From Thermodesulfobacteriota bacterium (GTDB taxonomy: Bacteria; Desulfobacterota; GWC2-55-46; JBHHVK01), in NCBI GenBank assembly GCA_046754205.1, contig JBHHVK010000002.1, positions 1 through 34,146 of the forward strand: a DNA stretch of 34,146 bases, in the 5' to 3' direction. Below are positions 13,379 through 34,146 of the stretch, piece after piece. Position 1 is the stretch's first letter. Each line of letters starts with the position of its first letter. The position numbers and the translations under genes were made by a program. A model generated the notes under the pieces. The model ran no database searches. It was not told the origin of the DNA and was given only the letters and a program-made list of their open reading frames with translations.

Positions 13379-13394
13379 GTTTTGTGATTGAAAA

Positions 13395-13430: not shown

Positions 13431-13498
13431 GACCTCTTCGCCTATGCCGCGGCCCGCCCGGCCGTTGCCGCAACTCAAGAATTCTCCTGCCGCTCTTC

Positions 13499-15829: not shown

Positions 15830-15941
15830 GCCGGTCCCATCGGCGCCGGGGCCTCTTCGTCGCCGCGCTCCTCGCGGTGTCCCCGAAGGCGCGCCCCCGC
15901 CGGTGACGCCCGACTCGCTCCCGCCCCGGTCAAATACATAA

Positions 15942-15978
15942 GGGGGCCGGCTCGTTGGAGCCGGCCCCCTTTATCTTT
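15942..15978. terminator. Bidirectional terminator between the convergent HD-GYP and PEP-CTERM genes
   Basis: GGGGGCCGGCTC-GTTG-GAGCCGGCCCCC followed by TTTATCTTT. The arms are identical to those of the 13395-13422 hairpin. Confidence 0.8.
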
Positions 15979-16000
15979 GACTGCGATATGTCCCCCTGGC

Positions 16001-16687: not shown

Positions 16688-16752
16688 GGTTCTTCTCCTC
16701 GGGTCTACCGTTAAATAGGGTGTAATTATCAGAGGATGCTAATAAAATATTA

Positions 16753-20804: not shown

Positions 20805-20826
20805 GCCCGGACCGGGGAGATAAGCG

Positions 20827-21264: not shown

Positions 21265-21294
21265 TTGACAATAGTCCTCGATATATACTATAAG
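21265..21294 (+). promoter_or_regulatory. Promoter of the riboswitch-controlled sulfur operon
   Basis: TTGACA (21265-21270), 18-bp spacer, TATAAG (21289-21294), about 30 nt before the riboswitch P1 helix. Confidence 0.55.
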
Positions 21295-21321
21295 TTAACC
21301 TACAACTTAATATTTCACGGA

Positions 21322-21500
21322 CTTCTTATCGAGAGTGGCAGAGGGACTGGCCCGATGAAGCCACAGCAACCGGTCCGCCTCAGGGCGTGATGTCAGGTGC
21401 TAATTCCAGCAAGGCCGTGGGAGACGTCATGTACCGTGCCGGGCGTCGCAACCCGTACCCCCAGGGGGGCTCGGGTTTCCCAGGACTTGGAAGATAAGGA
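21322..21500 (+). promoter_or_regulatory. SAM-I (S-box) riboswitch aptamer
   Basis: CTTATC-GAGAG-TGGCAGAGGGACTGGCCCGATGAAGCCAC-AGCAACC...GGTGCTAATTCCAGCAAGG...GGAAGATAAGG. It matches the S-box consensus in P1, the P2 kink-turn, the GCAACC / GGTGCTAA junctions and the closing GATAAG. The P4 arm is unusually long. Confidence 0.9.
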
Positions 21501-21508
21501 AAGGTTAC

Positions 21509-21548
21509 CGCCTCTTCTTAGCTTCGGAAAATAAGAAGGGGCTTTTTT
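21509..21548 (+). terminator. Riboswitch expression-platform terminator
   Basis: CCTCTTCTTA (21511-21520) pairs with TAAGAAGGGG (21532-21541), followed by CTTTTTT. The 3' P1 strand GATAAGGAAAGG can alternatively pair with CCTCTTCTTA as an antiterminator. Confidence 0.8.
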
Positions 21549-21683
21549 AATGCCCTTTCCATCCCCCCGACCCTCAGGCCCCGCCTTGATAACGAAAAGC
21601 CCTTGAAAGACGTCATCCGTTAAAAAACGGCGCGAAGACCCGCGGGCCCCGTTCCGCCGGGCAAACGAAGAGGAGGAGAGTGT

Positions 21684-22931
21684 ATGAATTGCATGAAGGG
21701 GTTGAGGTGCAGGGAGTGCGGCAAGGAGTACCCGCACGAGGCCCTGCACGTCTGCGAGCTCTGTTTCGGCCCTCTCGAAGTCCACTACGACTACGATAGG
21801 ATAAAGGAGGTCCTCACCAGGGAGACCATCGAGTCGAGGCAGCCGAACATGTGGCGGTACAGGGAGCTGCTCCCCCTCGATGGAGACCCCTCCGTCGGGG
21901 GCCAGGTGGGGTTCACCCCTCTTATAAGGGCGAGAAACCTCGAAAAGGTCCTCGGGGTGCGCGAGCTCTACCTGAAGAACGACGCCGTCAACTACCCCAC
22001 GCTCTCCTTCAAGGACCGCGTCGTCTCCGTGGCCATATCCCGCGCCCGCGAGATGGGCTTTGACACCGTGGCCTGCGCGTCCACGGGAAACCTGGCCAAC
22101 TCCGTGGCGGCCAACGCCGCCGCCTGCGGGATGAAGAGCTACGTCTTCATCCCCTACGACCTCGAGCAGACCAAGATAACGGGCACGCTCGTCTACGGGG
22201 CCAAGGTCGTGGGCATCAAGGGCGCCTACGACGAGGTCAACCGCCTCTGCTCGGAGATAGCCGGAAAGTACGGCTGGGCCTTCGTCAACATAAACATACG
22301 CCCCTACTACGCCGAGGGCTCGAAGACCTTCGGCCACGAGATAGCCGAGCAGCTCGGCTGGAGGCTCCCGAAGCACGTGGTGGTGCCCATGGCCGGGGGC
22401 TCCCTCATAACCAAGATATGGAAGGCCTTCGAGGAGTTCAAGAAGCTCGGCCTGGTGGAGGACACCGGGACCAGCGTCTACGGGGCGCAGGCCGCCGGGT
22501 GCGCGCCCATCGTCACCGCCGTCAAGGAGGGCAGTGAGCTCATCCGCCCGGTCAAGGCCAGGACCATAGCCAAGTCGCTGGCCATAGGCAACCCCGCCGA
22601 CGGATACTACTCCGCAAAGACCATCCGCGAGAGCGGAGGCTGGGGCGAGGACGTCACCGACGCCGAGATAGTGGACGCCATGAAGATGCTCGCCGAGACC
22701 GAGGGCGTCTTCGCCGAGACCGCCGGGGGCGTGACCTTCGGAGTGGCCAAAAAACTCATCGAGCAGGGCCGCATCCCCACCGACGAGTCCATAGTGATAT
22801 CCATAACCGGAAACGGCCTCAAGACGCAGGAGGCCCTGAACGGCTCGATCGAGCCCCCGGTGGTCATAGACGCCAGGCTCGGGGAGTTCGACGCCCTGGT
22901 CAGGGCAGAGGAAAAAGAGCTCGCCCTTTGA
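21684..22931 (+). CDS. Threonine-synthase-family PLP enzyme with an N-terminal Zn-ribbon (candidate O-phosphohomoserine-dependent homocysteine synthase)
   Basis: CRECGKEY...CELCFGPL zinc ribbon. PLP-lysine motif PTLSFKDRVVS. ASTGNLANS and MAGGSL. GAGGAGGAGAG RBS. Sits behind a SAM riboswitch. Confidence 0.8.
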   Translation: MNCMKGLRCRECGKEYPHEALHVCELCFGPLEVHYDYDRIKEVLTRETIESRQPNMWRYRELLPLDGDPSVGGQVGFTPLIRARNLEKVLGVRELYLKNDAVNYPTLSFKDRVVSVAISRAREMGFDTVACASTGNLANSVAANAAACGMKSYVFIPYDLEQTKITGTLVYGAKVVGIKGAYDEVNRLCSEIAGKYGWAFVNINIRPYYAEGSKTFGHEIAEQLGWRLPKHVVVPMAGGSLITKIWKAFEEFKKLGLVEDTGTSVYGAQAAGCAPIVTAVKEGSELIRPVKARTIAKSLAIGNPADGYYSAKTIRESGGWGEDVTDAEIVDAMKMLAETEGVFAETAGGVTFGVAKKLIEQGRIPTDESIVISITGNGLKTQEALNGSIEPPVVIDARLGEFDALVRAEEKELAL

Positions 22932-23132
22932 CCCCGGCCGGGCCGGAAGGCCGCGGACCGGGCGCCGGGGCCTTAAAAAAACTCTCTCAAATCGGCCGGA
23001 TTTCTGGTATCATAAAAAGATATGGTCTTGCGTCCGGCCCGGCCGCGCCGGCGGCCTCTTTACGCCCGCCCAGGGGCGCCGCGCCGGGAACGGACGAAAT
23101 TGATGATGATATGGAAGGGAGCGATCTGAACC

Positions 23133-24119
23133 ATGACGGACCACTTCATAGAGGACAAGAGGCACAAGGTCGACGTCGCCCTCGAAGGCGTAGGCCACGG
23201 CAAGGTGGACTTTGGCGACCTCAAGTCCGGCGGCTTCATAAAGCAGCGCCAGAAGGACCTCTTCACCGTGCGCCTCAGGTGCCCCGGCGGGAGGATGGAG
23301 ACTAAAAAGCTCGTTGAGATATCCAAGATAGCCGACAAGTACAGCAAAAAGGGGGTGGTGCACTTCAGCTACCGCCAGTCCCTCGAGATACTCTACGTCG
23401 ACTACAACGAGTTCAACAACATAGTCGCGGAGCTTGAAAAGATCGGCCAGAAGGTCGCCTCCTGCGGACCCAGGGTCCGCGTGCCCACGGCCTGCGGGGG
23501 CTGCGAGTACAACCCCAACGGGCTCATCGACACCCAGGCGCTCGCCGCGATGGTCGACGAGAAGTTCTTCGGCACGCCCACGCCCCACAAGTTCAAGACC
23601 TGCTTTTCAGGCTGCCCCATAGACTGCTCCCGGAGCAAGGAGATGGACCTCGGCTTCCAGGGCGTCGTCGAGCCCGAGTGGGACAAGCCGCTCTGCACGG
23701 GCTGCACCATCTGCGCGGAGGCCTGCAAGGAGGACGCCATAGAGAGCGACTCGGAGACGGGCATGCCCTACTTCGACCCGAAAAAATGCATCTACTGCGG
23801 CGACTGCATCCGCGCCTGCCCGACCGAGGCCTGGAAGGTCAAGAGGTATGGCCACACCGTAAGGATAGGCGGCAAGCACGGACGGCACCCCATGGAGTCG
23901 GTCGAGGTGGCCAACTTCATACCCGACGACAGGGTCGCCGCGGTAATAGAAAAGACCGTCGAGTGGTACAACGCCAACGGAGACCGCTTCGAGAGGATAG
24001 GCAACACCTTAAAGCGCGTCGGGCTCGACAAGTACATCGAGTTCATGGGTCCGCTGCTCGTCACCGAGCCCGCGGCGGAGTCGGGGGGCTATAAGAAACC
24101 GACCGAGAAGGCGGGTTGA
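23133..24119 (+). CDS. Small Dsr-like / assimilatory-type sulfite reductase (sirohaem-[4Fe-4S] domain with an inserted 2x[4Fe-4S] ferredoxin domain)
   Basis: Sirohaem-cluster Cys pattern TACGGCEY...CFSGCPIDC. Ferredoxin motifs CTGCTICAEAC and CIYCGDCIRACP. 328 aa. Confidence 0.7.
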   Translation: MTDHFIEDKRHKVDVALEGVGHGKVDFGDLKSGGFIKQRQKDLFTVRLRCPGGRMETKKLVEISKIADKYSKKGVVHFSYRQSLEILYVDYNEFNNIVAELEKIGQKVASCGPRVRVPTACGGCEYNPNGLIDTQALAAMVDEKFFGTPTPHKFKTCFSGCPIDCSRSKEMDLGFQGVVEPEWDKPLCTGCTICAEACKEDAIESDSETGMPYFDPKKCIYCGDCIRACPTEAWKVKRYGHTVRIGGKHGRHPMESVEVANFIPDDRVAAVIEKTVEWYNANGDRFERIGNTLKRVGLDKYIEFMGPLLVTEPAAESGGYKKPTEKAG

Positions 24120-24152
24120 CGATACCGAACGAACAGGAAGAGAGTTCCCCTT

Positions 24153-24392
24153 ATGAGTGAAATCAAACCCGATGTCTCCCTCGACCTGCGGGGAGTGATG
24201 TGCCCCACGAACTTCGTCAAGGCAAAGCTGAAGTTAGAGATGATGGAAGAGGGCCAGGTCTTAGAGCTCGTCCTCGACAGCGGCGAGCCTATCGCGAACG
24301 TGCCCAAGTCCATAAAGGAGGAGGGGCACAGGGTCGTGGAGGTGAAGAGGGAGGACGACCACTTCCGCCTCAAGGTCCGCAAGGAGGCTTAG
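24153..24392 (+). CDS. TusA/SirA-family sulfur-carrier-like protein
   Basis: 79 aa. LDLRGVMCPTNFVKAKLKL holds the conserved active-site Cys-Pro of the TusA fold. Confidence 0.75.
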   Translation: MSEIKPDVSLDLRGVMCPTNFVKAKLKLEMMEEGQVLELVLDSGEPIANVPKSIKEEGHRVVEVKREDDHFRLKVRKEA

Positions 24393-24548
24393 GGGGGTAG
24401 GGGGTTTAGGGAGTGTAGGGGGCTTAGGGTGACGCTCTCCCCCCCCCGGCGGACGTGTCCGGCCTGTAAATGGGGCTCAGGGGGGCAGGGGGGCGAGGGG
24501 GGCGAGGCATGGGACAGCCATAGGTGGCGGGGGGGGCGAGGCAGGGGC
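24392..24548 (+). repeat. Two G-quadruplex-type tracts starting at the tusA-like stop codon
   Basis: TAGGGGGGTAGGGGGTTTAGGGAGTGTAGGGGGCTTAGGGTG (five TAGGG-type runs), then a C8 run, then GGGGCTCAGGGGGGCAGGGGGGCGAGGGGGGCGAGG...GGCGGGGGGGGCGAGGCAGGGG. Confidence 0.75.
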
Positions 24549-24567
24549 CGTAAGGCTCCCCTTTTTT
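24544..24567 (+). terminator. Weak intrinsic terminator or attenuator between the tusA-like and thiS-like genes
   Basis: GGGGCC-GTAA-GGCTCCCC, a 6-bp stem with one bulge, followed by TTTTTT. Confidence 0.35.
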
Positions 24568-24628
24568 ACCCCCTTTGCACAGACCGGGTTCAGGATTAAA
24601 AAAAGCGGATATATTCAGGAGGTGCGCG

Positions 24629-24910
24629 ATGTCAGTCAAGGTGAGGATACCCACACCGCTCAGGAAGATTACCAATAACTCCGATGAGGTAGCCGCCGAG
24701 GGGACGAACGTCGGGCAGGTTATAGAGGACCTCGAGAAGAACTACCCGGGCATCAAGGAGAGGATCTGCGAGGAGGACGGCAGGCTCAGGCGCTTCGTGA
24801 ACCTCTACCTCAACGACGAGGACATCAGGTTCATGAACAACCTCGATACCGAGCTCAAGGACGGCGACGAGCTTTCCATCATCCCAGCCATAGCCGGAGG
24901 GTCCCGGTGA
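24629..24910 (+). CDS. ThiS/MoaD-family ubiquitin-like sulfur carrier ending GG-Ser-Arg
   Basis: 93 aa from the ATG at 24629 behind an AGGAGG RBS. DGDELSIIPAIAGGSR* is the beta-grasp C-terminus, with a Gly-Gly followed by two extra residues. Confidence 0.8.
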   Translation: MSVKVRIPTPLRKITNNSDEVAAEGTNVGQVIEDLEKNYPGIKERICEEDGRLRRFVNLYLNDEDIRFMNNLDTELKDGDELSIIPAIAGGSR

Positions 24911-25143
24911 AGAAGAGGGTCTACCTTACATACCCGAAGGAGCAGGTGAAGGAACCGCTCCTCTACCAGTGCGGCAAGCTCTGCGGCGTGGCCTTCAACA
25001 TCAGGCAGGCGAGCGTGTCGGACGCGGTGGGGCTCGTGGCGCTCGAGCTCGAAGGGGAGCCCGAGGAGATAGACAGGGCCATCGACTTCTTTATCAGCAA
25101 GGGCGTCAAGGTCGAGCCCATAGAGCTCGATATCATCGAGTGA
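24907..25143 (+). CDS. Stand-alone NIL-domain protein (ferredoxin-like fold, as at the MetN C-terminus)
   Basis: GTGA start/stop overlap with the carrier gene. 78 aa. YLTYPKEQVKEPLLYQ...FNIRQASVS...GLVALELEG...FFISKGVKVEPI matches the NIL-domain pattern. Confidence 0.65.
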   Translation: MKKRVYLTYPKEQVKEPLLYQCGKLCGVAFNIRQASVSDAVGLVALELEGEPEEIDRAIDFFISKGVKVEPIELDIIE

Positions 25144-25216
25144 CCCCTGCGGCCGCCGCCCGCCCATCCCCTTGTCCCCGCTGCCGGGGGTTGAGACGGC
25201 GATTGCGCATACAAGG

Positions 25217-25244
25217 ACCCCCGTCGCCCGGCGGGGGTTTTTTT
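25217..25244 (+). terminator. Intrinsic terminator ending the riboswitch-led unit
   Basis: ACCCCCG-TCGCCCGG-CGGGGGT followed by a T7 run. Confidence 0.75.
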
Positions 25245-25355
25245 GTCCTGCCCGCCGCGCCCGGCCCGCCGCGCAGGGGGGGGCTGACCCCTCGAATACC
25301 TTAAAAAATGTAAGGTTTTTAAGGGTTTGAATTTGCCGTTCGGTGGTAAAATATC

Positions 25356-25382
25356 TTGACAAAAGAACTAAGGTATTATAGT
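25356..25382 (+). promoter_or_regulatory. Candidate promoter of the cysM-JAMM-moeB unit
   Basis: TTGACA (25356-25361) with TATAGT (25377-25382) at a short 15-bp spacing. An AT-rich region with inverted repeat CCTTAAAAA-N8-TTTTTAAGG (25299-25324) lies upstream. Confidence 0.4.
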
Positions 25383-25551
25383 TTAAAAGTTGAGAAGTCT
25401 ACTAAGGTATTCTGCGGCGGCCTCGCCCGTTTCCGCCCGCCCTTTTCCGGATGGGCGCGCTTCAGGAAGAGGGCCCTATCCGGCCGCCGTGCAGGAGTCT
25501 GGTCGGCGTGTCCCTTCGGCAGGTCACGTAACCTTCGAGAGGTAATGGTTT

Positions 25552-26532
25552 ATGGGAGGACAGGGACGTAATCTCGCGGCCCCCGACCGCGAAGGCGCGG
25601 TTCTTCACACCTCCGGCGGGGCGAGGGTCGGCGCCTCGGTGCTCGAGCTCGTGGGCAACACACCCCTTGTGAGGATAAACAACATCACCAGGGGGCTGGC
25701 TCCCGGGGTGGATATCTACGCCAAGCTCGAGAGCTGCAACCCCGGGGGCTCGGTCAAGGACCGCGCGGCGCTCAGCATGATAGAGGACGCCGAAAATAGC
25801 GGCAGGTTCACGAAGGACAAGGTCCTTCTCGACTCCACCTCGGGCAACACCGGGATAGCCTACGCCTGGATATGCGCCGTCAAGGGGTACAAGGTAAGGC
25901 TCTGCGTGCCCGAGAACGTGAGCGAGGAGCGCAAGAAGACGCTCCGCGCCTTCGGCGCCGAGGTGGTCTTCAGCAACCCCCTCGAGGGCTCGGACGGCGC
26001 CATAAGGCTCGCCTGGAAGATATACGTTGAAAACCCGGAGATATACTGCAAGCTCGACCAGTACAACAACCCCTCCAACCCGATGGCCCATTACAAACAC
26101 ACGGGCCCGGAGATAATCGAGCAGACCGGGGGCAAGGTTACGCACCTCGTGGCCTCCATAGGCACCGGCGGGACCATAATGGGCACGGGCCGGAGCCTGA
26201 AGGAGTTCAACCCGGACATACAGGTCGTGGCGGTGGAGCCGGACAGCCCGCTGCACGGGCTCGAGGGCCTCAAGCACATGGCCTCCTCGATAGTGCCCGG
26301 CATTTACCACGCCGAGCAGCACGACAGCAAGGTGCCGGCCCCCACGGAGGAGTCCTACGACATGGCCAAGAGGCTCGCCCGCGAGGAGGGGCTCCTCGTG
26401 GGCCAGTCCTCGGGAGCGGCCATGTGGGGCGCTCTCGAGGTGGCCCGGAACCTCGACAGGGGGCTGGTGGTGGTCATCTTCCCCGACGGGGGCGACAAGT
26501 ACCTCTCCACCAGGCTCTGGGACGAGGCATAA
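25552..26532 (+). CDS. Cysteine synthase-family PLP enzyme (CysM/CysK-like)
   Basis: LVGNTPLVRIN, KLESCNPGGSVKDRAAL (PLP Lys), STSGNTGIAYA and GTGGTIMG. The N-terminal 25 or so residues are non-conserved, so the true start may be further downstream. Confidence 0.88.
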   Translation: MGGQGRNLAAPDREGAVLHTSGGARVGASVLELVGNTPLVRINNITRGLAPGVDIYAKLESCNPGGSVKDRAALSMIEDAENSGRFTKDKVLLDSTSGNTGIAYAWICAVKGYKVRLCVPENVSEERKKTLRAFGAEVVFSNPLEGSDGAIRLAWKIYVENPEIYCKLDQYNNPSNPMAHYKHTGPEIIEQTGGKVTHLVASIGTGGTIMGTGRSLKEFNPDIQVVAVEPDSPLHGLEGLKHMASSIVPGIYHAEQHDSKVPAPTEESYDMAKRLAREEGLLVGQSSGAAMWGALEVARNLDRGLVVVIFPDGGDKYLSTRLWDEA

Positions 26533-26534
26533 CG

Positions 26535-26612
26535 GCCGGGGAGGGGGCAGGGGGGGCAGGGGGAGGGCGAAGAGTGATTGGACGAGCGTGCGGGAGGGGT
26601 AGGGGGCAGGTG
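26535..26612 (+). repeat. G-run spacer directly after the cysM-like stop
   Basis: GGCCGGGGAGGGGGCAGGGGGGGCAGGGGGAGGGCG ... CGGGAGGGGTAGGGGGCAGG. Confidence 0.7.
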
Positions 26613-26707
26613 CGACAGGCAGGGCGATGGCGCGTTGGGCGCCGGGCCCGGGGGCGACCGCGGCCTGTACGTGAAATAAGCGATTTGAGGGGGCATGGGC
26701 TGAGTTT

Positions 26708-27151
26708 ATGATATTAGGCTTTGGCAAGAGCGCCATACACGTACCGAGGGCCGTATATGACGAGATTATAAACCACGCCAGGGACGCCTATCCCGACGAG
26801 TGCTGTGGTTTTCTCGTAGGCAAGGCCATAAGGGACAAGCGGGTCTGGCAGGTGGAGCGCGGCACGAACGCCAACACCGAGAGGTCCAGGGACAGGTACG
26901 TAATAGACCCGAAGGAGTATCACCTGACCGACAAGGTCGCCAGGACCCAGGGCCTCGACATCCTCGGCTTCTACCACTCCCACCCGGACCACCCCGACCG
27001 TCCCAGCGAGTTCGACCGCGCCGAGGGGCACCCGGGGTTCTCATACATCATTGTCTCCGTCCAGGGCGGAAAGACCGTCTCCGCCAGGAGTTGGATCTTC
27101 GACAAGGATGACGAGCCCTTCAGGGAAGAGAAGATAAAGATAGTCGACTGA
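26708..27151 (+). CDS. JAMM/MPN+ metallopeptidase (Mec+/HcyD/QbsD-like)
   Basis: ECCGFLVG Glu motif and the JAMM signature HSHPDHPDRPSEFD (H-x-H-x7-S-x2-D). 147 aa. Confidence 0.88.
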   Translation: MILGFGKSAIHVPRAVYDEIINHARDAYPDECCGFLVGKAIRDKRVWQVERGTNANTERSRDRYVIDPKEYHLTDKVARTQGLDILGFYHSHPDHPDRPSEFDRAEGHPGFSYIIVSVQGGKTVSARSWIFDKDDEPFREEKIKIVD

Positions 27152-27248
27152 TCTCGGCCGCGGGTGCGGGGCGGGCCTGAAGAGGGCCCGGGCGCACATC
27201 TTCACCCCGCGATGAGATTGCGGCAAGGAAGGGAGCTTTTTTGTTGAC

Positions 27249-28061
27249 ATGGACTTTACGGAAGAACAGATAGAGCGATACTCCAGGCACATCATACTCC
27301 CCGAGGTGGGCGGCCGTGGACAGGCCAAGCTCCTCAAGAGCCGGGTCTTCGTCCTCGGGGCCGGGGGGCTCGGCAGCCCGAGCCTCTTTTATCTCGCCGC
27401 CGCCGGCGTGGGCTCCATAGGCCTGGCCGACGGCGATTCCGTGGACGTCAGCAACCTCCAGCGCCAGATAATCCACACAAACTCGGATGTGGGCGCCCCC
27501 AAGGTCCACTCCGCCAGGGAATCCATCGAGGCCCTCAACCCTGACGTCAAGGTCGAGGCCTTCCACGGGCGGCTCACCGAGGAGAACATCCGCGAGGTGA
27601 TACGCCCATACGACGTAGTCCTCGACGGGTCGGACAACTTCCCCACCAGGTTCCTCGTCAACGACGCCTGCTTCTTCGAGCAAAAGACCCTCGTCTCGGG
27701 CTCCATGTTCAGGTTCGACGGCCAGGTCTCGGTCTTCAAGCCCCACGACGGCGGCCCCTGCTACAGGTGCCTCTATCCGGAGCCGCCCCCGAAGGGGCTC
27801 GTGCCGAGCTGCCAGGAGGCCGGGGTCCTCGGGGCGCTCGCCGGGGTAATCGGCGTCCTCCAGGCCGTGGAGGCCATTAAGGAGATACTCGGCATAGGAG
27901 AGTCGCTCGCCGGAAACCTCCTGATATTCGACGCCCTCAAGATGGGCTTCAGGAAGGTCAAGGTCAGGCGCGACCCCGAGTGCGCGCTCTGCGGGGGCAG
28001 CCCCACGATTACGGAACTCCGCGAGTACGAGCAGGAGGCCTGCGAGTGGAGCGCCGGCTGA
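27249..28061 (+). CDS. MoeB/ThiF-family E1-like adenylyltransferase (no rhodanese domain)
   Basis: RYSRHIILPEVG, the GAGGLGS nucleotide loop, SNLQRQ, and Zn-site pairs CYRC...CALC. 270 aa. Confidence 0.88.
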   Translation: MDFTEEQIERYSRHIILPEVGGRGQAKLLKSRVFVLGAGGLGSPSLFYLAAAGVGSIGLADGDSVDVSNLQRQIIHTNSDVGAPKVHSARESIEALNPDVKVEAFHGRLTEENIREVIRPYDVVLDGSDNFPTRFLVNDACFFEQKTLVSGSMFRFDGQVSVFKPHDGGPCYRCLYPEPPPKGLVPSCQEAGVLGALAGVIGVLQAVEAIKEILGIGESLAGNLLIFDALKMGFRKVKVRRDPECALCGGSPTITELREYEQEACEWSAG

Positions 28062-28101
28062 CGCCCGGAGCGTGCATCGCCCCTTCATAAAGGTTGCCGG
28101 C

Positions 28102-29313
28102 ATGAAGAACAACTACCTCGATAACCCCGGGGCCCTGAAGATAGACCTCATGCTCCAGGGCATCAGGATAGAGGACCCGGTGCTCAAGGCCTGGGCCTGC
28201 GGCGCCGACGGCATGGACATACTCTTGCCCATGGGCACGCTGGTCAACGTCCCCTGCAGCGACTACGTGGCCTCGACGTCGCCGTACGTCATAAAGAAGT
28301 CCGGCGATGGGCACGCCATAACCTTCGACGGGGCCGGCGAGGTGCCCGTGAGGTTCCTGCCCAAGCCCGAGTTCTACTACCGGAAGACCTCCACGGGGGT
28401 TCCCTTCTCGCGCATCGCCTCGGTCCACGGCAGCTACACCGTCATTACCCCGTCTCCGAGGTGCGAGTTCTTCAACCGGAAGGTCGAGTGCAAGTACTGC
28501 GCCGGCAACTTCGACGTCATCGGCGCGGACGAGACGGTCTTCTCCGTGGACGAGGTGCTCGAAACGGTCGCCGCGGTCCTGAAGGAGAAGGTCTCGGAGA
28601 TAATATACCTCTCGGTGGGGTTCAGCGAGGGGGACGACGGGGGTGTGGAGTTCCTCCGGCCCTACGTAAGGGCAATAAAGAAGCACTTCAACGTTCTGGT
28701 GGCCGTGGAGGCGCTGCCGCCGAAGGACAACCGCTGGATAGACAGGACCTACGCCATGGGGGCCGACTCGGTCCTCTACAACCTCGAGATATACGACCGC
28801 GAGCTCTTCGGGCTCATCTGCCCGGGCAGGGCCGAGCTCATAGGCTGGGAGAGGTACGCGGAGGCCCTCGGCTACGCCGCCGGCGTATTCCCCAACGGCA
28901 CCGTCGCCTCTCACCTCATCGTCGGGCTCGAGCCCCCGGGCTCCACTGTCCAGGGTATAGACTTTCTCGTCTCCATGGGGGTGGTGCCGATACTTCCGGT
29001 CATCAGGCCCACGAGGGACAGGTCGTACCACATTCACCCGCTCACTGCGGACGTCATAATCCCCGTATACAGGCACCTGTACAAGGCGCTCAAGGGGAGC
29101 GCGGTGAACTTCCGCTGGGTCCGCGACATCAGCATGGTCACCACCCCGGTGGAGGGAAGGCTCCTCGTGGACGAGGGCGGCCAGGGCGACAAGGCGACCC
29201 TCATGGAGAGTTTTTACGGGACGAGGCTCGGGCTCAAGGCCGCCTGGGGCCTTTCGACGATCAGGAGAAAGCTAAGGGTTAAGGAGGTCAAGGACCCCTC
29301 TGAGAACTCGTAA
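28102..29313 (+). CDS. Unassigned protein with a C-x8-C-x2-C motif (possible non-canonical radical SAM TIM-barrel enzyme)
   Basis: PRCEFFNRKVECKYCAGN cysteine triad, followed by IIYLSVGFSEGDDGG, which resembles a GGE-like motif. About 400 aa. The alternative GTG start at 28072 follows the moeB-like stop by 10 nt. Confidence 0.4.
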   Translation: MKNNYLDNPGALKIDLMLQGIRIEDPVLKAWACGADGMDILLPMGTLVNVPCSDYVASTSPYVIKKSGDGHAITFDGAGEVPVRFLPKPEFYYRKTSTGVPFSRIASVHGSYTVITPSPRCEFFNRKVECKYCAGNFDVIGADETVFSVDEVLETVAAVLKEKVSEIIYLSVGFSEGDDGGVEFLRPYVRAIKKHFNVLVAVEALPPKDNRWIDRTYAMGADSVLYNLEIYDRELFGLICPGRAELIGWERYAEALGYAAGVFPNGTVASHLIVGLEPPGSTVQGIDFLVSMGVVPILPVIRPTRDRSYHIHPLTADVIIPVYRHLYKALKGSAVNFRWVRDISMVTTPVEGRLLVDEGGQGDKATLMESFYGTRLGLKAAWGLSTIRRKLRVKEVKDPSENS

Positions 29314-29348
29314 CGACGGGCGGGGACCACTCTGCGGAGCCTACTCAA

Positions 29349-30779
29349 TTGAGCGTTGAGATAGACACAAGGCCCATATGGGTTATCCTTCTGCAGAGGT
29401 CCCTGAGGCCGGTCTTTTTCCTGGCCATGGCGCTGATCTTCTGGCTCGTCCTGGCCGTGCCGACCCCGGCCGGGTTGACGCCCGAGGGACAGAAGGCCAT
29501 AGCCGTCTTCGTCCTCTGCCTGGTGCTGTGGGTATCGGGCGCCGTGCCGCTCGCGATTACGTCGCTCTTCGCCATAGTGCTGGTGCCGGTGCTGGGGATA
29601 CTCCCCCACAAGGAGACCCTCGGGCTCTTCGGCAACGAGGCGGTCTTCTTCATACTCGGCGCGTTCATACTCGCCGGGGCGGTGATGCAGACGGGGCTCA
29701 GCAACCGCATCGCGCTCACCATACTCGACAGGTCGGGGTACTCGCCGAAAAGGCTCCTCATAAGCATCTTCCTCCTGGCGGCGTTCCTCTCCTTCTTCAT
29801 GAGCGAGCACGCCGTGGCGGCCATGCTCTTCCCCATAGTGCTCGAGATATCGAAGAGCCTGGGCCTCAGGCCGGGAAGGTCGAACTACGGCAAGCTCCTC
29901 TTCTTCGCGCTGGCCTGGGGGTGCGTAATAGGCGGCGTGGCGACATTCCTCGGCGGGGCCCGGGTGCCGCTCGCCATGGGCATCCTGAGCGAGACCACGG
30001 GCGAGACCATAGGTTTCCTCGACTACTCCATCGCCGTCTTCCCCGTGGTGGTGATACTCCTCGTCGTGGGGTATCTCCTTCTGACGAGGTTCTTCCCCGT
30101 GGACATAGACGGGGTGGACAGGGCGCGGGAAGTGCTCGACGCAAGGGTCAGGGCCCTCGGCAAGGTCTCCTTCAAGGAGTACTCCGTGGGCCTGCTCCTC
30201 GTCGCCACCATCCTCTGCTGGATACTCTTCGGCGGCAGGGTCGGGCTATCCACCATCGCGCTCTCCTCGGTGGTGGTGCTCTTCGTCTTCAGGCTCGTCC
30301 GGTGGAGGGACATAGAGGAGTACGTCAACTGGGGGATAATCCTCATGTACGGCGGGGCCATCATCCTGGGCACCGCCCTCGATAGATCCGGGGCGGCCGA
30401 GTGGCTCGTCGGCTCGGTCCTCGGCTCCTGGGCCACGGGGCCGATGCTGGTCATCGGGTTCATCTCGCTCCTCACGCTCCTTCTGACCGAGGCCATGAGC
30501 AACGCCGCGGTCATAGCCGTGCTCCTGCCCGTGGCCATGGGGCTGGCGGGAAAGCTCTCCATGGACCCTACGGTCATGACCTATGCCGTCGCCGTGCCTG
30601 CGGGACTTGCCTTCATGTTCCCCATGAGCACGCCGGCTAACGCGCTTGCGATATCGTCGAGCTACGTAAGCGTCCGCGACCTCATAAAGGGTGGCTTCAT
30701 CATGTTCATCACGGCATGGGTGGCCTTCAACCTGGTGGCCGCCTTCTGGTGGCCCCTCATAGGGCAGGGATACGGGTAG
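29349..30779 (+). CDS. SLC13/DASS-family anion permease (candidate sulfate or sulfur-oxyanion importer)
   Basis: 476 aa, polytopic membrane protein with duplicated hairpin motifs (FMSEHA...; EAMSNAAVIAVLLPV...; MSTPANA). TTG start. Confidence 0.7.
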   Translation: MSVEIDTRPIWVILLQRSLRPVFFLAMALIFWLVLAVPTPAGLTPEGQKAIAVFVLCLVLWVSGAVPLAITSLFAIVLVPVLGILPHKETLGLFGNEAVFFILGAFILAGAVMQTGLSNRIALTILDRSGYSPKRLLISIFLLAAFLSFFMSEHAVAAMLFPIVLEISKSLGLRPGRSNYGKLLFFALAWGCVIGGVATFLGGARVPLAMGILSETTGETIGFLDYSIAVFPVVVILLVVGYLLLTRFFPVDIDGVDRAREVLDARVRALGKVSFKEYSVGLLLVATILCWILFGGRVGLSTIALSSVVVLFVFRLVRWRDIEEYVNWGIILMYGGAIILGTALDRSGAAEWLVGSVLGSWATGPMLVIGFISLLTLLLTEAMSNAAVIAVLLPVAMGLAGKLSMDPTVMTYAVAVPAGLAFMFPMSTPANALAISSSYVSVRDLIKGGFIMFITAWVAFNLVAAFWWPLIGQGYG

Positions 30780-30803
30780 CAGCCCGGGAGCCGTTGTGGT
30801 AAA

Positions 30804-31271
30804 ATGAAAAATGTGCTCTTAGTCTTATCCACTTCGAGGACCTCCGAAGAGGTCCTCGGCTACGCCGTGGAAAAGGCCGCCGAGGCGGGCGTTAAGCTCG
30901 TGGCCCTCTACATCCTCGAAAAGGAGCTCGCCGAGGAGGTCTTCGACGCCTTTACGGACGTGGGCTTCATAGGCGACAGGCCATCGGTGCAGATAACCGA
31001 GTCGCTCATGAAGGAGTACCGCCAGAGGGGCTACGAGGAGCTCGGCCGTCTCCAGATAAGGACCATGGAGGCGGGCGTGGACTTCGACCCCCTGATGGAG
31101 GAGGGCGACTACGTCACCACCGTGCTCGACGCCATGGAGGGCCGGGACATAGGGCTCGCCGTCCTCATAAAGCGCAGGAAGAGGAGCTTTTTCAAGTACT
31201 TTTCAAAGTCCCTCGCCGAGGAGGTCAAGGAAAAGGCCCCCTGCGAGGTCGTCATATTCGAGGAAGAATGA
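30804..31271 (+). CDS. Universal stress protein-like (adenine-nucleotide alpha-hydrolase fold)
   Basis: MKNVLLVLSTSRTSEEVLGYAVEKA...KLVALYIL...APCEVVIFEE. 155 aa. Confidence 0.5.
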   Translation: MKNVLLVLSTSRTSEEVLGYAVEKAAEAGVKLVALYILEKELAEEVFDAFTDVGFIGDRPSVQITESLMKEYRQRGYEELGRLQIRTMEAGVDFDPLMEEGDYVTTVLDAMEGRDIGLAVLIKRRKRSFFKYFSKSLAEEVKEKAPCEVVIFEEE

Positions 31272-31293
31272 AGAGGCAAAGGGAGCATCTGCC

Positions 31294-31992
31294 ATGATAA
31301 GCGTTAAGGTCTGGACCGCCGAAGAGCTCGGCAAGGTGAACGATGAACTGGAGGGAAGCCCCCCCCAGGACGTGCTCCGCTGGGTCGTGGATAACTTCGC
31401 TCGCGAGGACTTCGCGCTCGCCTGCAGCTTCGGCGAGCCGGTCCTCGTGGACATGCTCGTCAAGATAAAGCCCGACGCCCGCATATTCTCTCTCGACACC
31501 GGGCTCCACTTCGCCGAGACCCTGGAGCTCAAGGACGAGATAGAGCGCAAGTACGGCATCAGGATAGAGATGTACAGGCCGAAGCTGACGCTCGATGAGA
31601 TGGAAAGGGAGTACGGTCCCGAGCTCTGGAAGCGTAATCCCGACGAGTGCTGCAGGATCCGCAAGGTCGAGCCCTTGAAAGAGGTCCTCTCCGGGCTCAA
31701 GGCCTGGATTACCGGCATCCGCAGGGACCAGTCCCCCACGAGGAAAAACGCCCCGGTGGTGGGCATCGACCCGAAGCACGGCCTCGTGAAGGTCAACCCG
31801 CTGGTCAACTGGACGTCGCGCGACGTCTGGGAGTACCTCGAGCGCAACGGCGTGCCCTACAACAGGCTCCTCGACCAGGCCTTCGCCTCCGTCGGGTGCG
31901 AGCCCTGCACCAGGCCGATAATCCCCGGCGAGGACGAGAGGGCGGGCCGCTGGGATGGTTTTGCGAAGACCGAGTGCGGGCTCCACAAATAA
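31294..31992 (+). CDS. cysH: Adenylylsulfate (APS)-type phosphoadenosine phosphosulfate reductase family enzyme
   Basis: ACSFG...SLDTG PP-loop-type motifs. The Cys pairs DECCRIRK and CEPC are typical of [4Fe-4S] APS reductases. C-terminal catalytic ECGLH. Confidence 0.88.
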   Translation: MISVKVWTAEELGKVNDELEGSPPQDVLRWVVDNFAREDFALACSFGEPVLVDMLVKIKPDARIFSLDTGLHFAETLELKDEIERKYGIRIEMYRPKLTLDEMEREYGPELWKRNPDECCRIRKVEPLKEVLSGLKAWITGIRRDQSPTRKNAPVVGIDPKHGLVKVNPLVNWTSRDVWEYLERNGVPYNRLLDQAFASVGCEPCTRPIIPGEDERAGRWDGFAKTECGLHK

Positions 31993-32162
31993 ACCTGTTG
32001 AATCCCGGCGAGAAAACCTTTAGAATACCCGTTTCCTCACCAGTCGGAAATACCGGACTCGAGGCCGCGCCCGCAGCCGCCTCTCCGTGCGCCTGACGTC
32101 CCGGCCCCGGCCCGGTGAAATAGAAATATATCTGGCTGGGGTCTTCCAGCGGGAGAGAGAGC

Positions 32163-33020
32163 GTGGCCGAAGGAACCGTCAAGGGGGGCGAGGGGGGGGG
32201 CGAGGGGGGGGGCGGGGGGTTGTCAGACGGCCTCGTCGGCGAGCTTTCCGCGCTCGCCGACGCCGCCGGAAGGGCGATACTCGAGATATACTCAGGGGCC
32301 GACTTCGGCACCACCTACAAGGACGACCGGAGCCCGCTGACCATGGCCGACGAGGCCTCAAACAGGGTCATCATCGCCGGGCTCGCCGACATCGCCCCGG
32401 GGATACCCGTCCTCTCCGAGGAGTCCGGGCAGGTCCCCTACGGCCGGAGAAGGGACTGGGAGAGGTTCTTCCTCGTCGACCCGCTCGACGGCACGAAGGA
32501 GTTCATCAAGCGTAACGGCGAGTTCACCGTCAATATCGCCCTCGTGGAAGGGGGCCGGCCCGTCGTCGGGGTGGTCCACTGCCCGGCTCTCGGGGTGACC
32601 TACTCGGGGGTTGCGGGCTCGGGCGCGAAGAAGGCCTCGAAAGGGGGTAGTATCGCGATAAGGGCCGGGGGCCCCGCTGGCGGCGCGCTCAAGGTCGTGG
32701 CCTCGAGGTCCCACAGGGGCGAGGCCACGGACAGGTTCGTCGAAAGGCTCCGCGCCGAGGGCCGCCAGGTCGAGTTCGTGGGCATGGGGAGCTCCTTGAA
32801 GCTCTGCCTCGTAGCCGAGGGGGCCGCCCACCTCTACCCGAGGTTCGGCCCCACCATGGAGTGGGATACCGCGGCGGCCCAGTGCGTGGTCGAGGCCGCG
32901 GGCGGCGCCGTCACCGACCTTGACGGGGCCCCGCTGGTGTACAACAAGGAGGACCTCTTAAACCCGTACTTCATGGTCGTGGGCGACCCGGCCTTCACAT
33001 GGCAACGGTACATCTACTGA
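32163..33020 (+). CDS. cysQ: 3'(2'),5'-bisphosphate nucleotidase
   Basis: SEESG, VDPLDGTKEF and WDTAAAQCVVEAAGG inositol-monophosphatase-family motifs. GTG 32163 has a GGGAGAGAGAG RBS but gives a Gly/Glu-rich N-terminus encoded by a G-run tract. TTG 32220 is an alternative start. Confidence 0.85.
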   Translation: MAEGTVKGGEGGGEGGGGGLSDGLVGELSALADAAGRAILEIYSGADFGTTYKDDRSPLTMADEASNRVIIAGLADIAPGIPVLSEESGQVPYGRRRDWERFFLVDPLDGTKEFIKRNGEFTVNIALVEGGRPVVGVVHCPALGVTYSGVAGSGAKKASKGGSIAIRAGGPAGGALKVVASRSHRGEATDRFVERLRAEGRQVEFVGMGSSLKLCLVAEGAAHLYPRFGPTMEWDTAAAQCVVEAAGGAVTDLDGAPLVYNKEDLLNPYFMVVGDPAFTWQRYIY

Positions 33021-33185
33021 GGGGCCGCAGGATTAATCTTAAAACCCGTACTTCATGGTCGTGGGCGACCCGGCCTTCACATGGCAACGGTACATCTACT
33101 GAGGGGCCGCAGGATTAATCTTAAAACCCGTACTTCATGGTAACGGGCGACCCGGCCTTCCCCTGGCGCGGATACATCGGCCGGG
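32961..33185 (+). repeat. 82-bp tandem repeat spanning the cysQ stop codon (two identical copies plus one diverged partial copy)
   Basis: 32961-33042 and 33043-33124 are identical base for base (AACCCGTACTTCATGGTCGTGGGCGACCCGGCCTTCACATGGCAACGGTACATCTACTGAGGGGCCGCAGGATTAATCTTAA). A third copy from 33125 shares the first 36 nt or so with three substitutions and then diverges. Confidence 0.95.
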
Positions 33186-33257
33186 GGGCGAGGGACATGA
33201 AAAACCTTTCTTCATAATACCACAAAGAGGATTACACGATAAGGAGGACGGCACAAG

Positions 33258-34146
33258 GTGACTAAGCTTATAGAGCCTCACGGAGGCGAACTCAAGGAAC
33301 TGATAGTGGCTGAAGCCGAGGCGGAGGCCCTCAAGGAAGAGGCACTGGGCCTCGTTTCATGGGACCTTACGGAGCGCCAGATGTGGGACGTGGAGATGCT
33401 CCTGAGCGGCGGGTTCAGCCCGCTCGAGGGTTTTCTCGGAAAGAAGGATTACGAGGCCGTCCTCGAAAAGATGAGGCTCGCCGACGGCACGATCTGGACC
33501 ATGCCCATAACCCTCGACGTGACCGCGGAGTTCGCCGAAGGCGTAAAGGAGGGTGACCGCGTGGCGCTGCGCGACCCCGAGGGGGTCCTCATGGCGGTCC
33601 TCACGGTTTCGGACAAATGGACCCCGGACAAAAAGAACGAGGCCGAGAAGGTCTTCGGCAGCGACGATACGGTGCACCCCGGCATCAACTACCTCCTTAA
33701 CATGGCAGGCCCCGTGTACCTCGGCGGGAGGCTCGAAGGCGTAGAGGCCCCGCGCCACTACGACTTCAAGGAGCTCCGCTACACCCCCAGGCAGTTGAGG
33801 GAGAAGTTCGAGCGCCTCGGCTGGCGCAAGATCGTCGCCTTCCAGACCCGAAACCCCATGCACCGGGCGCACCAGGAGCTGACCTTCCGCGCCGCCCAGA
33901 ACACCGAGGCGAACCTGTTGATCCACCCGGTCGTCGGCATGACCAAGCCCGGTGACATCGACCATTACTCGAGGATCCGCTGCTACGAGCACCTGATAGC
34001 CCACTACCCCGAGCAGTCCACGGCGCTTTCCCTCCTGCCGCTCGCCATGAGGATGGGCGGGCCCAGGGAGGCCGTGTGGCACGCCATAATCAGGAAGAAC
34101 TTCGGCTGCACCCACTTCATCGTGGGAAGGAACCACGCCGACCCGG
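33258..34146 (+). CDS. sat: Sulfate adenylyltransferase (ATP sulfurylase), 3' end outside the window
   Basis: Not in the ORF track because no stop lies in the window. My own translation from GTG 33258 (AAGGAGGA RBS 9 nt upstream) gives [17 protein letters not shown]...[11 protein letters not shown]...[16 protein letters not shown]...[12 protein letters not shown]...[10 protein letters not shown]. Confidence 0.88.

Follow-up and report, generated by a model that had tools for sequence, protein, structure and literature searches.

We find that a 13-kb array in a Thermodesulfobacteriota bacterium (JBHHVK010000002.1; GCA_046754205.1), with all components on the + strand, probably encodes an assimilatory sulfur module in which sulfate would be reduced to sulfide and the sulfur loaded on a shared carrier protein that feeds a homocysteine branch and a cysteine branch. 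The array fills positions 21265–34146 of the window—i.e. the whole 34,146-nt stretch of DNA that was analyzed. Family and profile searches recovered all genes listed in the original prediction, as well as its SAM-I riboswitch, with slightly corrected coordinates, and the gene identities are borne out by domain and family matches. The gene content also agrees with its central claim of a ubiquitin-like sulfur-carrier system encoded with a complete sulfate-to-sulfide set, and the protein-thiocarboxylate chemistry for cysteine and homocysteine appears to be of a known kind.

What is observed directly comprises the gene identities, their homologies and synteny, together with the riboswitch and the patterns of gene fusion and TGA codons; from these we infer all substrates and reactions of the locus. 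Sulfate would enter through a DASS-family symporter and be activated by Sat, with CysQ clearing PAP; an APS-type CysH would then reduce it to sulfite, and a sulfite reductase akin to the C-terminal part of Fsr would produce sulfide. A JAMM peptidase would first trim the two residues that follow the Gly-Gly of the carrier, and a rhodanese-less E1 would then adenylate the exposed Gly-Gly end. Sulfur delivered as sulfide, or via TusA and Cys188 of the E1, would yield the carrier thiocarboxylate. From this thiocarboxylate and O-phosphohomoserine, a ThrC-like enzyme would form homocysteine (MetM/MetO type), under repression by SAM through the riboswitch. A CysM-like enzyme would most likely take the same thiocarboxylate to form a carrier-cysteine adduct, which the JAMM peptidase would hydrolyze (CysO/CysM/Mec type).

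The genes for sulfate reduction were identified by their family matches. The small NIR_SIR sulfite reductase (23133–24119; Pfam NIR_SIR_ferr, NIR_SIR, and Fer4) carries a 2x[4Fe-4S] ferredoxin insert and resembles the catalytic C-terminal half of Fsr, its best PDB match being residues 329–615 of 7np8 (E = 3.9e-44). The DASS-family anion symporter (29349–30779; Na_sulph_symp, 5e-63) scores 264 bits against TIGR00785 (cutoff 198.6) and is presumed to act in sulfate uptake. It is followed by a gene of the universal stress protein family (30804–31271; Pfam Usp, 4.3e-11) that is syntenic within the lineage, and by the assimilatory APS-type reductase CysH (31294–31992), which passes TIGR02055 (240.3 bits vs 235.3) and has all of the CC, CxxC, and ECGLH motifs. 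The 3'(2'),5'-bisphosphate nucleotidase CysQ (32163–33020; TIGR01331, 290 bits vs 228.8) matches its model over residues 27–273, and its true start probably lies 3' of a G-rich repeat at 32183–32219. Sulfate adenylyltransferase (Sat) starts with GTG at 33258 and runs off the window at 34146; its N-terminal 296 aa match the bifunctional Sat/APS-kinase family best.

The sulfur carrier (24629–24910) is a CysO/MetO-type ThiS/MoaD protein of 93 aa, as assigned by family matches, with its start corrected to the ATG at 24629 and its C-terminus, AIAGG-SR, ending at 24910. It matches M. tuberculosis CysO over its full length (E = 9.1e-25, ~50% identity), and Foldseek aligns it with CysO of M. tuberculosis and A. 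orientalis at TM 0.90–0.93 and 49–53% identity. Its stop codon is overlapped by the GTG start of a stand-alone NIL domain protein (24907–25143; 78 aa; Pfam NIL, 1.9e-15), and in 16 loci and >120 database clusters NIL is fused to the carrier, after the Gly-Gly. In these fusions, PA[IV]AGG is invariant and the linker to NIL is variable; an AF2 model of one places the GG in an exposed, low-confidence linker, and its NIL half superposes on the methionine-binding C2 domain of MetNI (3tuz, 3dhw, and 3dhx; Foldseek), although NIL has no PDB match at the sequence level. Carriers with a C-terminus blocked by a tail or a fusion have a JAMM gene nearby in 20 of 24 loci, compared with 2 of 16 for those with a free GG (counts uncorrected for phylogeny). 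This co-occurrence implies pro-carrier cleavage, in which the JAMM peptidase would remove the tail or the NIL fusion. NIL itself is associated with both the ThrC-like enzyme and the carrier, and we predict that it is a partner of the two, either as a C-terminal pro-domain or cap, or as a methionine-type ligand sensor.

The TusA-family protein (24153–24392; Cys17-Pro; Pfam TusA, 7.5e-21) is a candidate for the sulfur relay because its distribution is complementary to that of rhodanese-bearing E1s. Specifically, TusA is absent near E1s that carry a rhodanese domain at the N-terminus (9 loci, and 8 with a double-rhodanese protein; uncorrected for phylogeny), whereas loci with a rhodanese-less E1 have it. 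The MoeB/ThiF-type E1 of this array (27249–28061; 270 aa; ThiF, 2.3e-83) is of the latter kind, since its alignment to PRK08762 and PRK07878 is confined to their MoeB portion, and TusA probably relays sulfur to this enzyme and the carrier. In the loci of 9 relatives, a TGA (selenocysteine) codon occupies the position of E1 Cys188, and the frame is conserved beyond it. The view that TusA and NIL have no role in any described version of these pathways was too strong, as both now have a proposed role. A third protein that had been left without a role (28102–29313) has a variant radical-SAM fold (NF045502, 182.7 bits vs a cutoff of 125), an invariant C121-x8-C130-x2-C133 motif, and a beta-rich N-terminal domain of ~110 aa. 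Its AF2 model (mean pLDDT 79.7) matches PylB, LipA, BioB, and NifB at TM ~0.45 in Foldseek. The protein is rare but conserved. A second architecture also links it with the carrier and the DASS permease, and we regard it as a putative accessory.

The searches (tblastn; Pfam on small ORFs) found only a single copy each of carrier, E1, and JAMM within the 13 kb, as originally proposed, and we infer that the carrier is common to both PLP enzymes. The CysM-like enzyme (25552–26532) passes the cysKM subfamily model (355 bits vs a cutoff of 344) and falls below the cutoff of the cysM model (369.8 vs 394 bits). It is followed by the JAMM/MPN metallopeptidase (26708–27151; Prok-JAB, 2.3e-27), which has an intact motif (E31, H90-S-H92-x7-S101-xx-D104). 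Ordinary sulfide-using CysM/CysK (E. coli CysM, 4e-71) resemble the CysM-like protein more than M. tuberculosis CysM does; the latter is absent from the 60 best PDB matches of the protein, and for this reason the cysteine branch may use free sulfide instead. The carrier would then serve the homocysteine branch only, the CysM-like protein would be an ordinary O-acetylserine/O-phosphoserine sulfhydrylase that is clustered here because all of these genes belong to sulfur assimilation, and the JAMM peptidase would mature the carrier and perhaps release homocysteine. This alternative, which we consider rather unlikely, is favored by the sulfide made by the cluster itself and by three loci (L033, L036, and L038) that have the ThrC-like enzyme, a carrier–NIL, E1, and JAMM in the absence of CysM. 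By contrast, the carrier is a homologue of CysO, and in 33 of 34 loci, covering three gene orders, a CysM of this subfamily (≥50% identity) is found no more than 252 nt from JAMM, wherever E1 and carrier sit (again uncorrected for phylogeny); this adjacency mirrors mec-cysO-cysM of M. tuberculosis. In addition, the carrier follows CysM-JAMM, and not the ThrC-like gene, in L047, L059, and L069. We thus retain the shared carrier with two branches as the preferred reading.

The whole order of 13–14 genes is found again in ~25 species-level genomes of a single uncultured Thermodesulfobacteriota lineage, and this strong synteny in relatives argues against a chance arrangement of the array. The original prediction thereby withstands its own check on whether the co-localization is conserved. 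The adjacency of the ThrC-like gene, carrier, and NIL extends to Thermodesulfobacteriota, Verrucomicrobiota, Planctomycetota, Armatimonadota, and others, with no E1 or JAMM near the Verrucomicrobiota trio. The core of riboswitch, ThrC-like enzyme, and carrier, usually with NIL, is present in at least 6 phyla, including an actinomycete. The composition is therefore lineage-specific as a full order only, and its core is widespread and not unique.

The array is made up of two units. The first closes with an intrinsic-terminator-like hairpin and U7 3' of NIL (25213–25245; fold energy ~−24 kcal/mol), and hairpins resembling this CCCCCG...CGGGGGTT structure are present in several relatives. A second promoter-like AT-rich island (25330–25551; TTGACA at 25356–25361) with a ~160-nt leader precedes CysM. 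This leader has no Rfam match, no block conserved across 20 relatives, and no sulfur- or SAM-responsive element recognizable from either. It is very unlikely, in our view, that the units are independent neighbors—i.e. a SAM-controlled methionine operon and a sulfate/cysteine operon whose order is a lineage-specific accident. The strong terminator and second island between them, the restriction of the full order to one lineage, and a NIL-CysM spacer that ranges from ~100 to >1100 nt among relatives are consistent with such independence. However, the first unit has the carrier and lacks E1 and JAMM, while the second has E1 and JAMM and lacks a carrier, so the units need each other; the same components also recur in altered orders in distant phyla (L067, Armatimonadota; L071, Planctomycetota; and L069).

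The first unit opens with a candidate promoter, TTGACA-N18-TATAAG, in an AT-rich island (21265–21294). Both candidate promoters were read by eye from TTGACA boxes in such islands, and a consensus scan called neither. The SAM-I riboswitch aptamer (21323–21500) scores 60.7 bits against RF00162 (gathering score 44.4) and 96.1 bits over its length, with P1 intact, against a covariance model that we derived from 8 orthologous leaders. Its end was set at 21500 on account of a ~70-nt insertion in P4 and the position of the P1 3' strand (GAUAAG, ~21493–21498). An expression-platform terminator with an 11-bp stem and U6 follows (21510–21549; −16 kcal/mol). Further downstream, a G-rich repeat spacer (24382–24569) with a terminator-like hairpin at 24544–24569 separates TusA from the carrier, and its length varies among relatives.

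The ThrC-like PLP enzyme (21684–22931; PALP, 4e-70) has an N-terminal CxxC...CxxC zinc ribbon, and we propose that it is a MetM-like, O-phosphohomoserine-dependent homocysteine synthase. A carrier gene adjoins the ThrC-like gene in >60 genomes, and the predicted link of this pair to methionine is strengthened by SAM-I riboswitches, which directly precede the ThrC-like operon here and in 62 of 83 related loci spread over several phyla, and by the same module in an actinomycete. The least probable reading is that the enzyme is a true threonine synthase, or makes cystathionine from O-phosphohomoserine and cysteine (plant-type transsulfuration), with the carrier serving some other purpose (e.g. 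thiolation of cofactors or tRNA, or protein conjugation): the protein passes TIGR00260 (277.8 bits vs 167) and, barely, NF006050 (thrC; 309.5 vs 303), and all public records label it threonine synthase, but a SAM riboswitch, as present in these loci and in the actinomycete, would be unexpected on a threonine gene, the carrier gene lies directly 3' in at least 6 phyla, no array examined has a cystathionine beta-lyase, the Verrucomicrobiota modules have no CysM for local cysteine supply, and family searches found no Moco, thiamin, or tRNA-thiolation genes in the window.

Several known systems share parts of this array. In Streptomyces, MetM/MetO reportedly use a ThrC homologue and a thiocarboxylated carrier to convert O-phospho-L-homoserine to homocysteine, and the arrangement is the same: a SAM-I riboswitch leads a ThrC-family PLP enzyme, which is directly followed by a ~91-aa ThiS/MoaD carrier with a GG terminus. 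The actinomycete module, from Nonomuraea, is presumably of this published type, and consists only of the riboswitch, a ThrC-like protein (55% identical to ours), and a carrier (52% identical), with no E1, JAMM, CysM, variant radical-SAM, or sulfate-pathway genes nearby. Here, by contrast, the carrier ends in GG-SR and its gene overlaps that of NIL, the genes for the sulfite reductase and TusA lie between those for the enzyme and the carrier, and the locus also encodes E1, JAMM, CysM, the variant radical-SAM protein, and the sulfate pathway.

The cysteine pathway of M. tuberculosis (CysO/CysM/Mec+/MoeZ) likewise has a carrier ~50% identical to ours, a CysM-family enzyme adjoining a JAMM gene, and an E1 of the MoeB/MoeZ family. 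It differs in that the E1 here has no rhodanese domain, with TusA encoded instead, the CysM-like protein shows no special similarity to M. tuberculosis CysM, and the carrier gene sits beside the ThrC-like enzyme rather than CysM.

Methanogens and other anaerobes synthesize homocysteine with COG1900 (DUF39) and NIL-ferredoxin proteins, and a NIL protein dedicated to homocysteine formation in anaerobes would be common to both routes. However, this locus has no COG1900 protein, and its NIL, which lacks a ferredoxin domain, is linked with a ThiS-type carrier or fused to one. In the MetNI importer, the C2 (NIL) domain of MetN binds methionine for trans-inhibition; here, NIL is stand-alone or carrier-fused instead of being part of an ABC ATPase, and methionine binding is putative.

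The homocysteine pathway of Wolinella succinogenes (HcyS/HcyD/HcyF/MetY) is said to be clustered with a sulfite reductase and sulfate-assimilation genes. Both systems have carrier residues after GG that JAMM must remove, a rhodanese-less E1, and sulfate-to-sulfide genes in the cluster, and homocysteine is the likely product here as well. The sulfur acceptor, however, is a fold-type II ThrC homologue here and the fold-type I MetY in Wolinella, and the presumed substrate is O-phosphohomoserine, not O-acetylhomoserine; NIL, TusA, the variant radical-SAM protein, and the CysM branch are further additions of the present array.

Downstream of the riboswitch, the array comprises 14 co-directional genes on the + strand. 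The gene inventory of the original prediction is correct, as the riboswitch and all 14 genes are recovered by searches against families of the Rfam, Pfam, and NCBIfam type. The first unit encodes the ThrC-like enzyme, a sulfite reductase, TusA, the ThiS/MoaD-like carrier, and a NIL protein, and ends in a strong terminator-like hairpin; an additional hairpin of this kind lies between the TusA and carrier genes. The second unit encodes a CysM-like enzyme, a JAMM metallopeptidase, a MoeB/ThiF-type adenylyltransferase (E1), a CX8CX2C protein, a DASS permease, Usp, CysH, CysQ, and Sat. CysH is of the APS type (motifs CC, CxxC, and ECGLH are present), and only the first 296 residues of Sat fall inside the window. 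A TTGACA box within an AT-rich island can be read 5' of the CysM-like gene. A consensus promoter and terminator scan of the window called neither of the two promoters proposed by eye nor the two main terminators; RNA folding instead supports both terminators, while the promoters are plausible by eye only. The leader of the second unit (25143–25552) has no match to an Rfam family even at E ≤ 1, and a comparison of 20 orthologous NIL–CysM spacers found no conserved block except the NIL terminator hairpin; on these grounds a riboswitch in this leader is rejected for now.

The co-localization on which the original prediction depends is kept in relatives. Scanning the alignment of the ThrC-like protein against one genome per species returned 80 loci, which were annotated by tblastn with the window proteins. 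The full array—i.e. ThrC-like enzyme, sulfite reductase, TusA, and carrier, followed by CysM, JAMM, E1, CX8CX2C protein, DASS, Usp, CysH, (CysQ), and Sat—occurs in the window's lineage, in about 25 genomes at species level. The nearest homologues come from metagenome-assembled genomes of uncultured "Deltaproteobacteria"/Thermodesulfobacteriota, and the whole gene order is repeated in contigs with a ThrC-like protein 75–86% identical to that of the window, including the complete genome CP129479.1. An intermediate module of ThrC-like enzyme, carrier, NIL, E1, JAMM, and CysM is present, in differing gene orders, in other MAGs of the Thermodesulfobacteriota/Syntrophaceae type, in Armatimonadota, and in Planctomycetota. 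Many Verrucomicrobiota carry the minimal trio of ThrC-like enzyme, carrier, and NIL alone.

Several features of the surrounding DNA were also recorded. Directly 5' of the riboswitch (19737–21237) lie genes for an outer-membrane protein of the Pom family and for a small protein bearing a paired-CXXCH (cytochrome-like) motif, and their synteny is kept in three related loci (L003, L004, and L006). Positions 1–16700 are ordinary chromosomal housekeeping DNA (lexA, dinB, deaD, two tRNAs, thrS, infC, pheST, and rimO) together with genes for a MerR regulator, an H-NOX protein, a PAS-HD-GYP protein, and a PEP-CTERM protein, and annotation of this upstream region found no further Met or Cys genes. Short G-rich repeats (TTAGGGGGT, GGGGGGCGAGGG, and GGGGGCAGG) occur at 24382–24507, 26543–26563, and 32183–32219, within array spacers and where cysQ is annotated to start; they could be G-quadruplexes or a genome-wide repeat, and the true cysQ start is probably 3' of the third. 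An 82-bp tandem repeat (32956–33167; 2.6 copies, 95% identity) extends from the 3' end of cysQ into the cysQ–sat spacer.

The window holds one SAM-I riboswitch by Rfam RF00162 (21323–21430; 60.7 bits vs. a gathering score of 44.4), although the P1 stem of this match alone is poor. A custom covariance model based on eight orthologous leaders lengthens the match to 21323–21500, with a clean P1 in which CUUAUC pairs with GAUAAG, a P4 insertion of ~70 nt, and the conserved four-way-junction core. Directly 3' of the aptamer, folding predicts a terminator hairpin with an 11-bp stem and U6 (21510–21549). Its score, closed P1, and junction core place the element in the family as a predicted SAM-I riboswitch. 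The custom model places a SAM-I riboswitch directly 5' of the ThrC-like operon in the window, and does so in 62 of 83 related loci as well; Rfam's own model recovers it in 7 of the 16 loci tested.

The ThrC-like enzyme is a PLP-family protein whose N terminus carries a CxxC...CxxC zinc ribbon, a feature missing from solved threonine synthases. Its gene is followed in the unit by that of the ThiS/MoaD carrier, which has a C-terminal Gly-Gly and, in the window, a two-residue tail beyond it. Searching the plasmid collection PLSDB at the protein level gave a reduced version of this pairing, in an 11.85-Mb record of Nonomuraea gerenzanensis (NZ_LT559118.1, locus L088) that is filed as a plasmid but is evidently a mis-typed chromosome. 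Here, a SAM-I riboswitch (68.7 bits) precedes a ThrC-like gene 55% identical to that of the window and a carrier gene 52% identical, whose product has 91 aa and ends in AVAGG; 3' of the carrier gene come a hairpin and the unrelated genes cspA and groEL. The other matches in the plasmid collection are only distant haloarchaeal thrC genes (33–40% identity). The Nonomuraea arrangement may be that of MetM/MetO in Streptomyces, where a ThrC homologue reportedly turns O-phosphohomoserine and a thiocarboxylated carrier into homocysteine. Because a SAM-I riboswitch heads the operon in the window and in most related loci, and because of the Nonomuraea module, we conclude that the ThrC-like enzyme probably belongs to methionine, not threonine, metabolism, with substrates that are predicted. 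Six related loci (L046, L047, L055, L058, L059, and L069) have a further gene between the SAM riboswitch and the ThrC-like gene. Its product is 37–43% identical to the window CysM and has 2egu as best PDB match; by PDB search, this paralogue in loci of the L047 type is an ordinary CysK-type cysteine synthase.

The carrier (93 aa, ending AIAGG-SR) matches M. tuberculosis CysO over its full length in sequence searches (3dwg_C; E 9.1e-25). The NIL protein has 78 aa and no Fe-S domain, and the GTG start of its gene overlaps the carrier stop. Across the loci, the carrier C-terminus is found in three states. It is a free ...AIAGG, mostly in Verrucomicrobiota; it is GG followed by 1–9 variable residues, the carrier stop being overlapped by the NIL gene, as in the window's lineage; or, in 16 loci, it continues through a variable Lys-rich linker into NIL in one polypeptide of 167–187 aa. 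The protein database has many such fusions: the best 120 matches to one of them all combine ThiS and NIL domains, and the sole names given to these matches are "MoaD family" or the like. When 31 fusions are aligned, PA[IV]AGG is invariant and the linker varies in both length and sequence. The AlphaFold2 model of a fusion has two confident domains with a low-confidence joint exactly at the GG. Its N-terminal half superposes on CysO (Foldseek TM 0.90–0.93, 49–53% identity) and its C-terminal half on the C2/NIL domain with which the MetNI importer binds methionine, a likeness found only by this fold comparison, since NIL has no match in the PDB by sequence. The Thermus thermophilus "MoaD related protein" (1v8c; 165 aa, two domains) aligns over both halves of the model and also has a sequence match to the carrier (E 1e-11); it is possibly a relative of the fusion with a solved structure.

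A JAMM gene is nearby in 20 of 24 loci with a blocked carrier end (tail or fusion) vs. 2 of 16 loci with a free GG (Fisher P = 1.3e-5, for loci with enough flank and with phylogeny ignored). The metal-site motif of the window JAMM is intact (E31, H90xH92x7S101xxD104). The simplest reading is that the predicted JAMM would cut after Gly-Gly and free the carrier, a cleavage for which HcyD/HcyS and QbsD/QbsE offer precedent, and that NIL is a physically associated partner or pro-domain of the carrier. A role of NIL as a sulfur relay is unlikely, since the window protein and the 31 aligned fusions have no conserved cysteine; ligand sensing or docking is a candidate role.

The second PLP enzyme looks like an ordinary CysK/CysM-family protein. 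Its similarity to E. coli CysM exceeds that to the M. tuberculosis enzyme, which is not among its best 60 PDB matches, and because of this proximity to ordinary CysM/CysK its sequence alone fails to indicate dependence on a carrier. Its genomic context is more informative. In loci where CysM is at least 50% identical to that of the window, a JAMM gene lies within 252 nt in 33 of 34, the sole exception being a truncated contig. The adjacency is found in three gene orders (CysM-JAMM-E1, E1-...-JAMM-CysM, and CysM-JAMM-carrier), and in one related locus (L069) the stops and starts overlap along CysK-ThrCL-NIL-CysM-JAMM-carrier-vrSAM-DASS, where ThrCL is the ThrC-like gene and vrSAM encodes the CX8CX2C protein. 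This adjacency argues for a coupling of the CysM-like enzyme to the carrier system. Only one carrier is encoded in the 13 kb of the window array and in related arrays, and the small ORFs considered as a possible second carrier (26424–26711, 24200–24400, and 25356–25571) have no Pfam domain. As this single carrier is encoded in the first unit, and the E1 and JAMM in the second, the most economical model is that one CysO-like carrier would serve both PLP enzymes.

The predicted siroheme sulfite reductase (328 aa) has a NIR_SIR_ferr and NIR_SIR core with an inserted 2×[4Fe-4S] ferredoxin; the cysteines are present, with CxxCxxCxxxC occurring twice, and among solved structures it is nearest to the catalytic C-terminal half of F420-dependent Fsr (7np8; E 4e-44). 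The window E1 (270 aa) lacks a rhodanese domain and aligns only to the adenylyltransferase part of MoeZ/MoeB models. By contrast, nine loci of the fusion type have an E1 with an N-terminal rhodanese domain; TusA is nearby in none of these nine, and a double-rhodanese protein is encoded in eight. Where the E1 is rhodanese-less, TusA is close by; such loci include those of the window's lineage and five others (L032, L043, L058, L067, and L071). The rhodanese-bearing E1 genes (L039, 12272–13520, with equivalents in L041, L044, L045, L048, L050, L051, L054, and L063) also have a TGA in frame at precisely the codon that corresponds to window Cys188, within LVPS[C/U]QEAGVLG. The reading frame stays conserved for ~87 residues beyond the TGA, which we therefore read as a selenocysteine signature, and these nine E1s are probably selenocysteine-containing enzymes. 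Given the complementarity of TusA and rhodanese and the TGA at Cys188, TusA may stand in for rhodanese as sulfur relay, and Cys188 may be the residue that passes sulfur to the adenylated carrier. It is equally possible that the adenylated carrier takes sulfide directly from the neighboring sulfite reductase, with no relay involved.

The CX8CX2C protein matches the NCBIfam variant_rSAM family (182.7 bits vs. a cutoff of 125), and its motif C121-x8-C130-x2-C133 is invariant in 29 homologues. The canonical radical-SAM CX3CX2C motif is absent and the Pfam Radical_SAM match is below cutoff (22.9 vs. 29.5). The AlphaFold2 model (mean pLDDT 79.7) has a beta-rich N-terminal domain of ~110 aa and a barrel of the radical-SAM type. 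Its best Foldseek matches are PylB, LipA, BioB, NifB, and HydG (E about 1e-5, with low TM of 0.42–0.47), and the protein is thus predicted to have a partial TIM-barrel radical-SAM fold; these matches are generic to radical-SAM proteins and point to no specific function. The family is small: of 1.84 billion representatives, 101 match at E ≤ 1e-30 and 733 at E ≤ 1e-10. We find that the protein is a genuine recurrent accessory of the carrier system, and in L069 its gene lies between those of the carrier and DASS. At another related locus (L032, 14021–21221), the ThrCL-carrier-NIL-E1-CysM-JAMM module is followed by five DsrE/DsrH-like genes, TusA, a GcvH-like protein, two radical SAM proteins, a lipoate-protein ligase, another TusA, and, after this one at the end of the block, a homologue 38% identical to the window protein. 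This neighborhood resembles lipoate-binding-protein sulfur-oxidation and lipoate-assembly clusters. Together with a weak LipS2 match (21 bits), it gives a hint, but too little to assign a function. An Fe-S-based role in sulfur handling is improbable.

A more elaborate reading joins the accessory proteins, although we consider it rather doubtful. NIL would be a removable ligand-sensing cap, as a carrier-GG-NIL pro-protein or a translationally coupled NIL, and JAMM cleavage or NIL binding governed by Met, Hcy, or SAM would gate the access of Gly-Gly to the E1, with the CX8CX2C protein as a new Fe-S enzyme passing sulfur to the activated carrier. If true, ubiquitin-style pro-protein processing would here serve as metabolic feedback. 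The original interpretation, in which some of the partners were unassigned, is supported in part, and the comparative evidence adds testable hypotheses: NIL as pro-domain or partner of the carrier, TusA as a stand-in for the missing rhodanese, Cys188 in sulfur transfer, and one carrier for two PLP enzymes. A small uncharacterized variant radical-SAM family also gains a functional neighborhood.

Cysteine and homocysteine synthesis by way of a protein thiocarboxylate is known from a few model organisms. Our findings suggest that a ThrC-like (MetM-type) route is widespread in uncultured anaerobes of several phyla. Its genes are annotated everywhere as "threonine synthase" and "MoaD"; if the route is real, metabolic reconstructions of such organisms mis-assign methionine and threonine synthesis.

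With the CysO/CysM/Mec+/MoeZ system of M. tuberculosis, the window shares a CysO-type carrier and a JAMM with an intact metal site; however, MoeZ is an E1 fused to rhodanese, unlike the window E1. With HcyS/HcyD/HcyF/MetY of Wolinella, it shares a carrier tail beyond the GG and a JAMM, but the acceptor in that system, the fold-type I O-acetylhomoserine sulfhydrylase MetY, is not among the 14 genes of the array. The methanogen route uses COG1900/DUF39 and a NIL-ferredoxin, whereas the locus has no COG1900 and its NIL carries no ferredoxin. The likeness to the MetM/MetO type lies in the pairing of a ThrC-family enzyme with a Gly-Gly carrier, and homocysteine would be the product here as well. 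Functionally, the locus would join three described themes: CysO/CysM/Mec, tail trimming of the HcyS type alongside clustered sulfate reduction, and a ThrC homologue of the MetM/MetO type.
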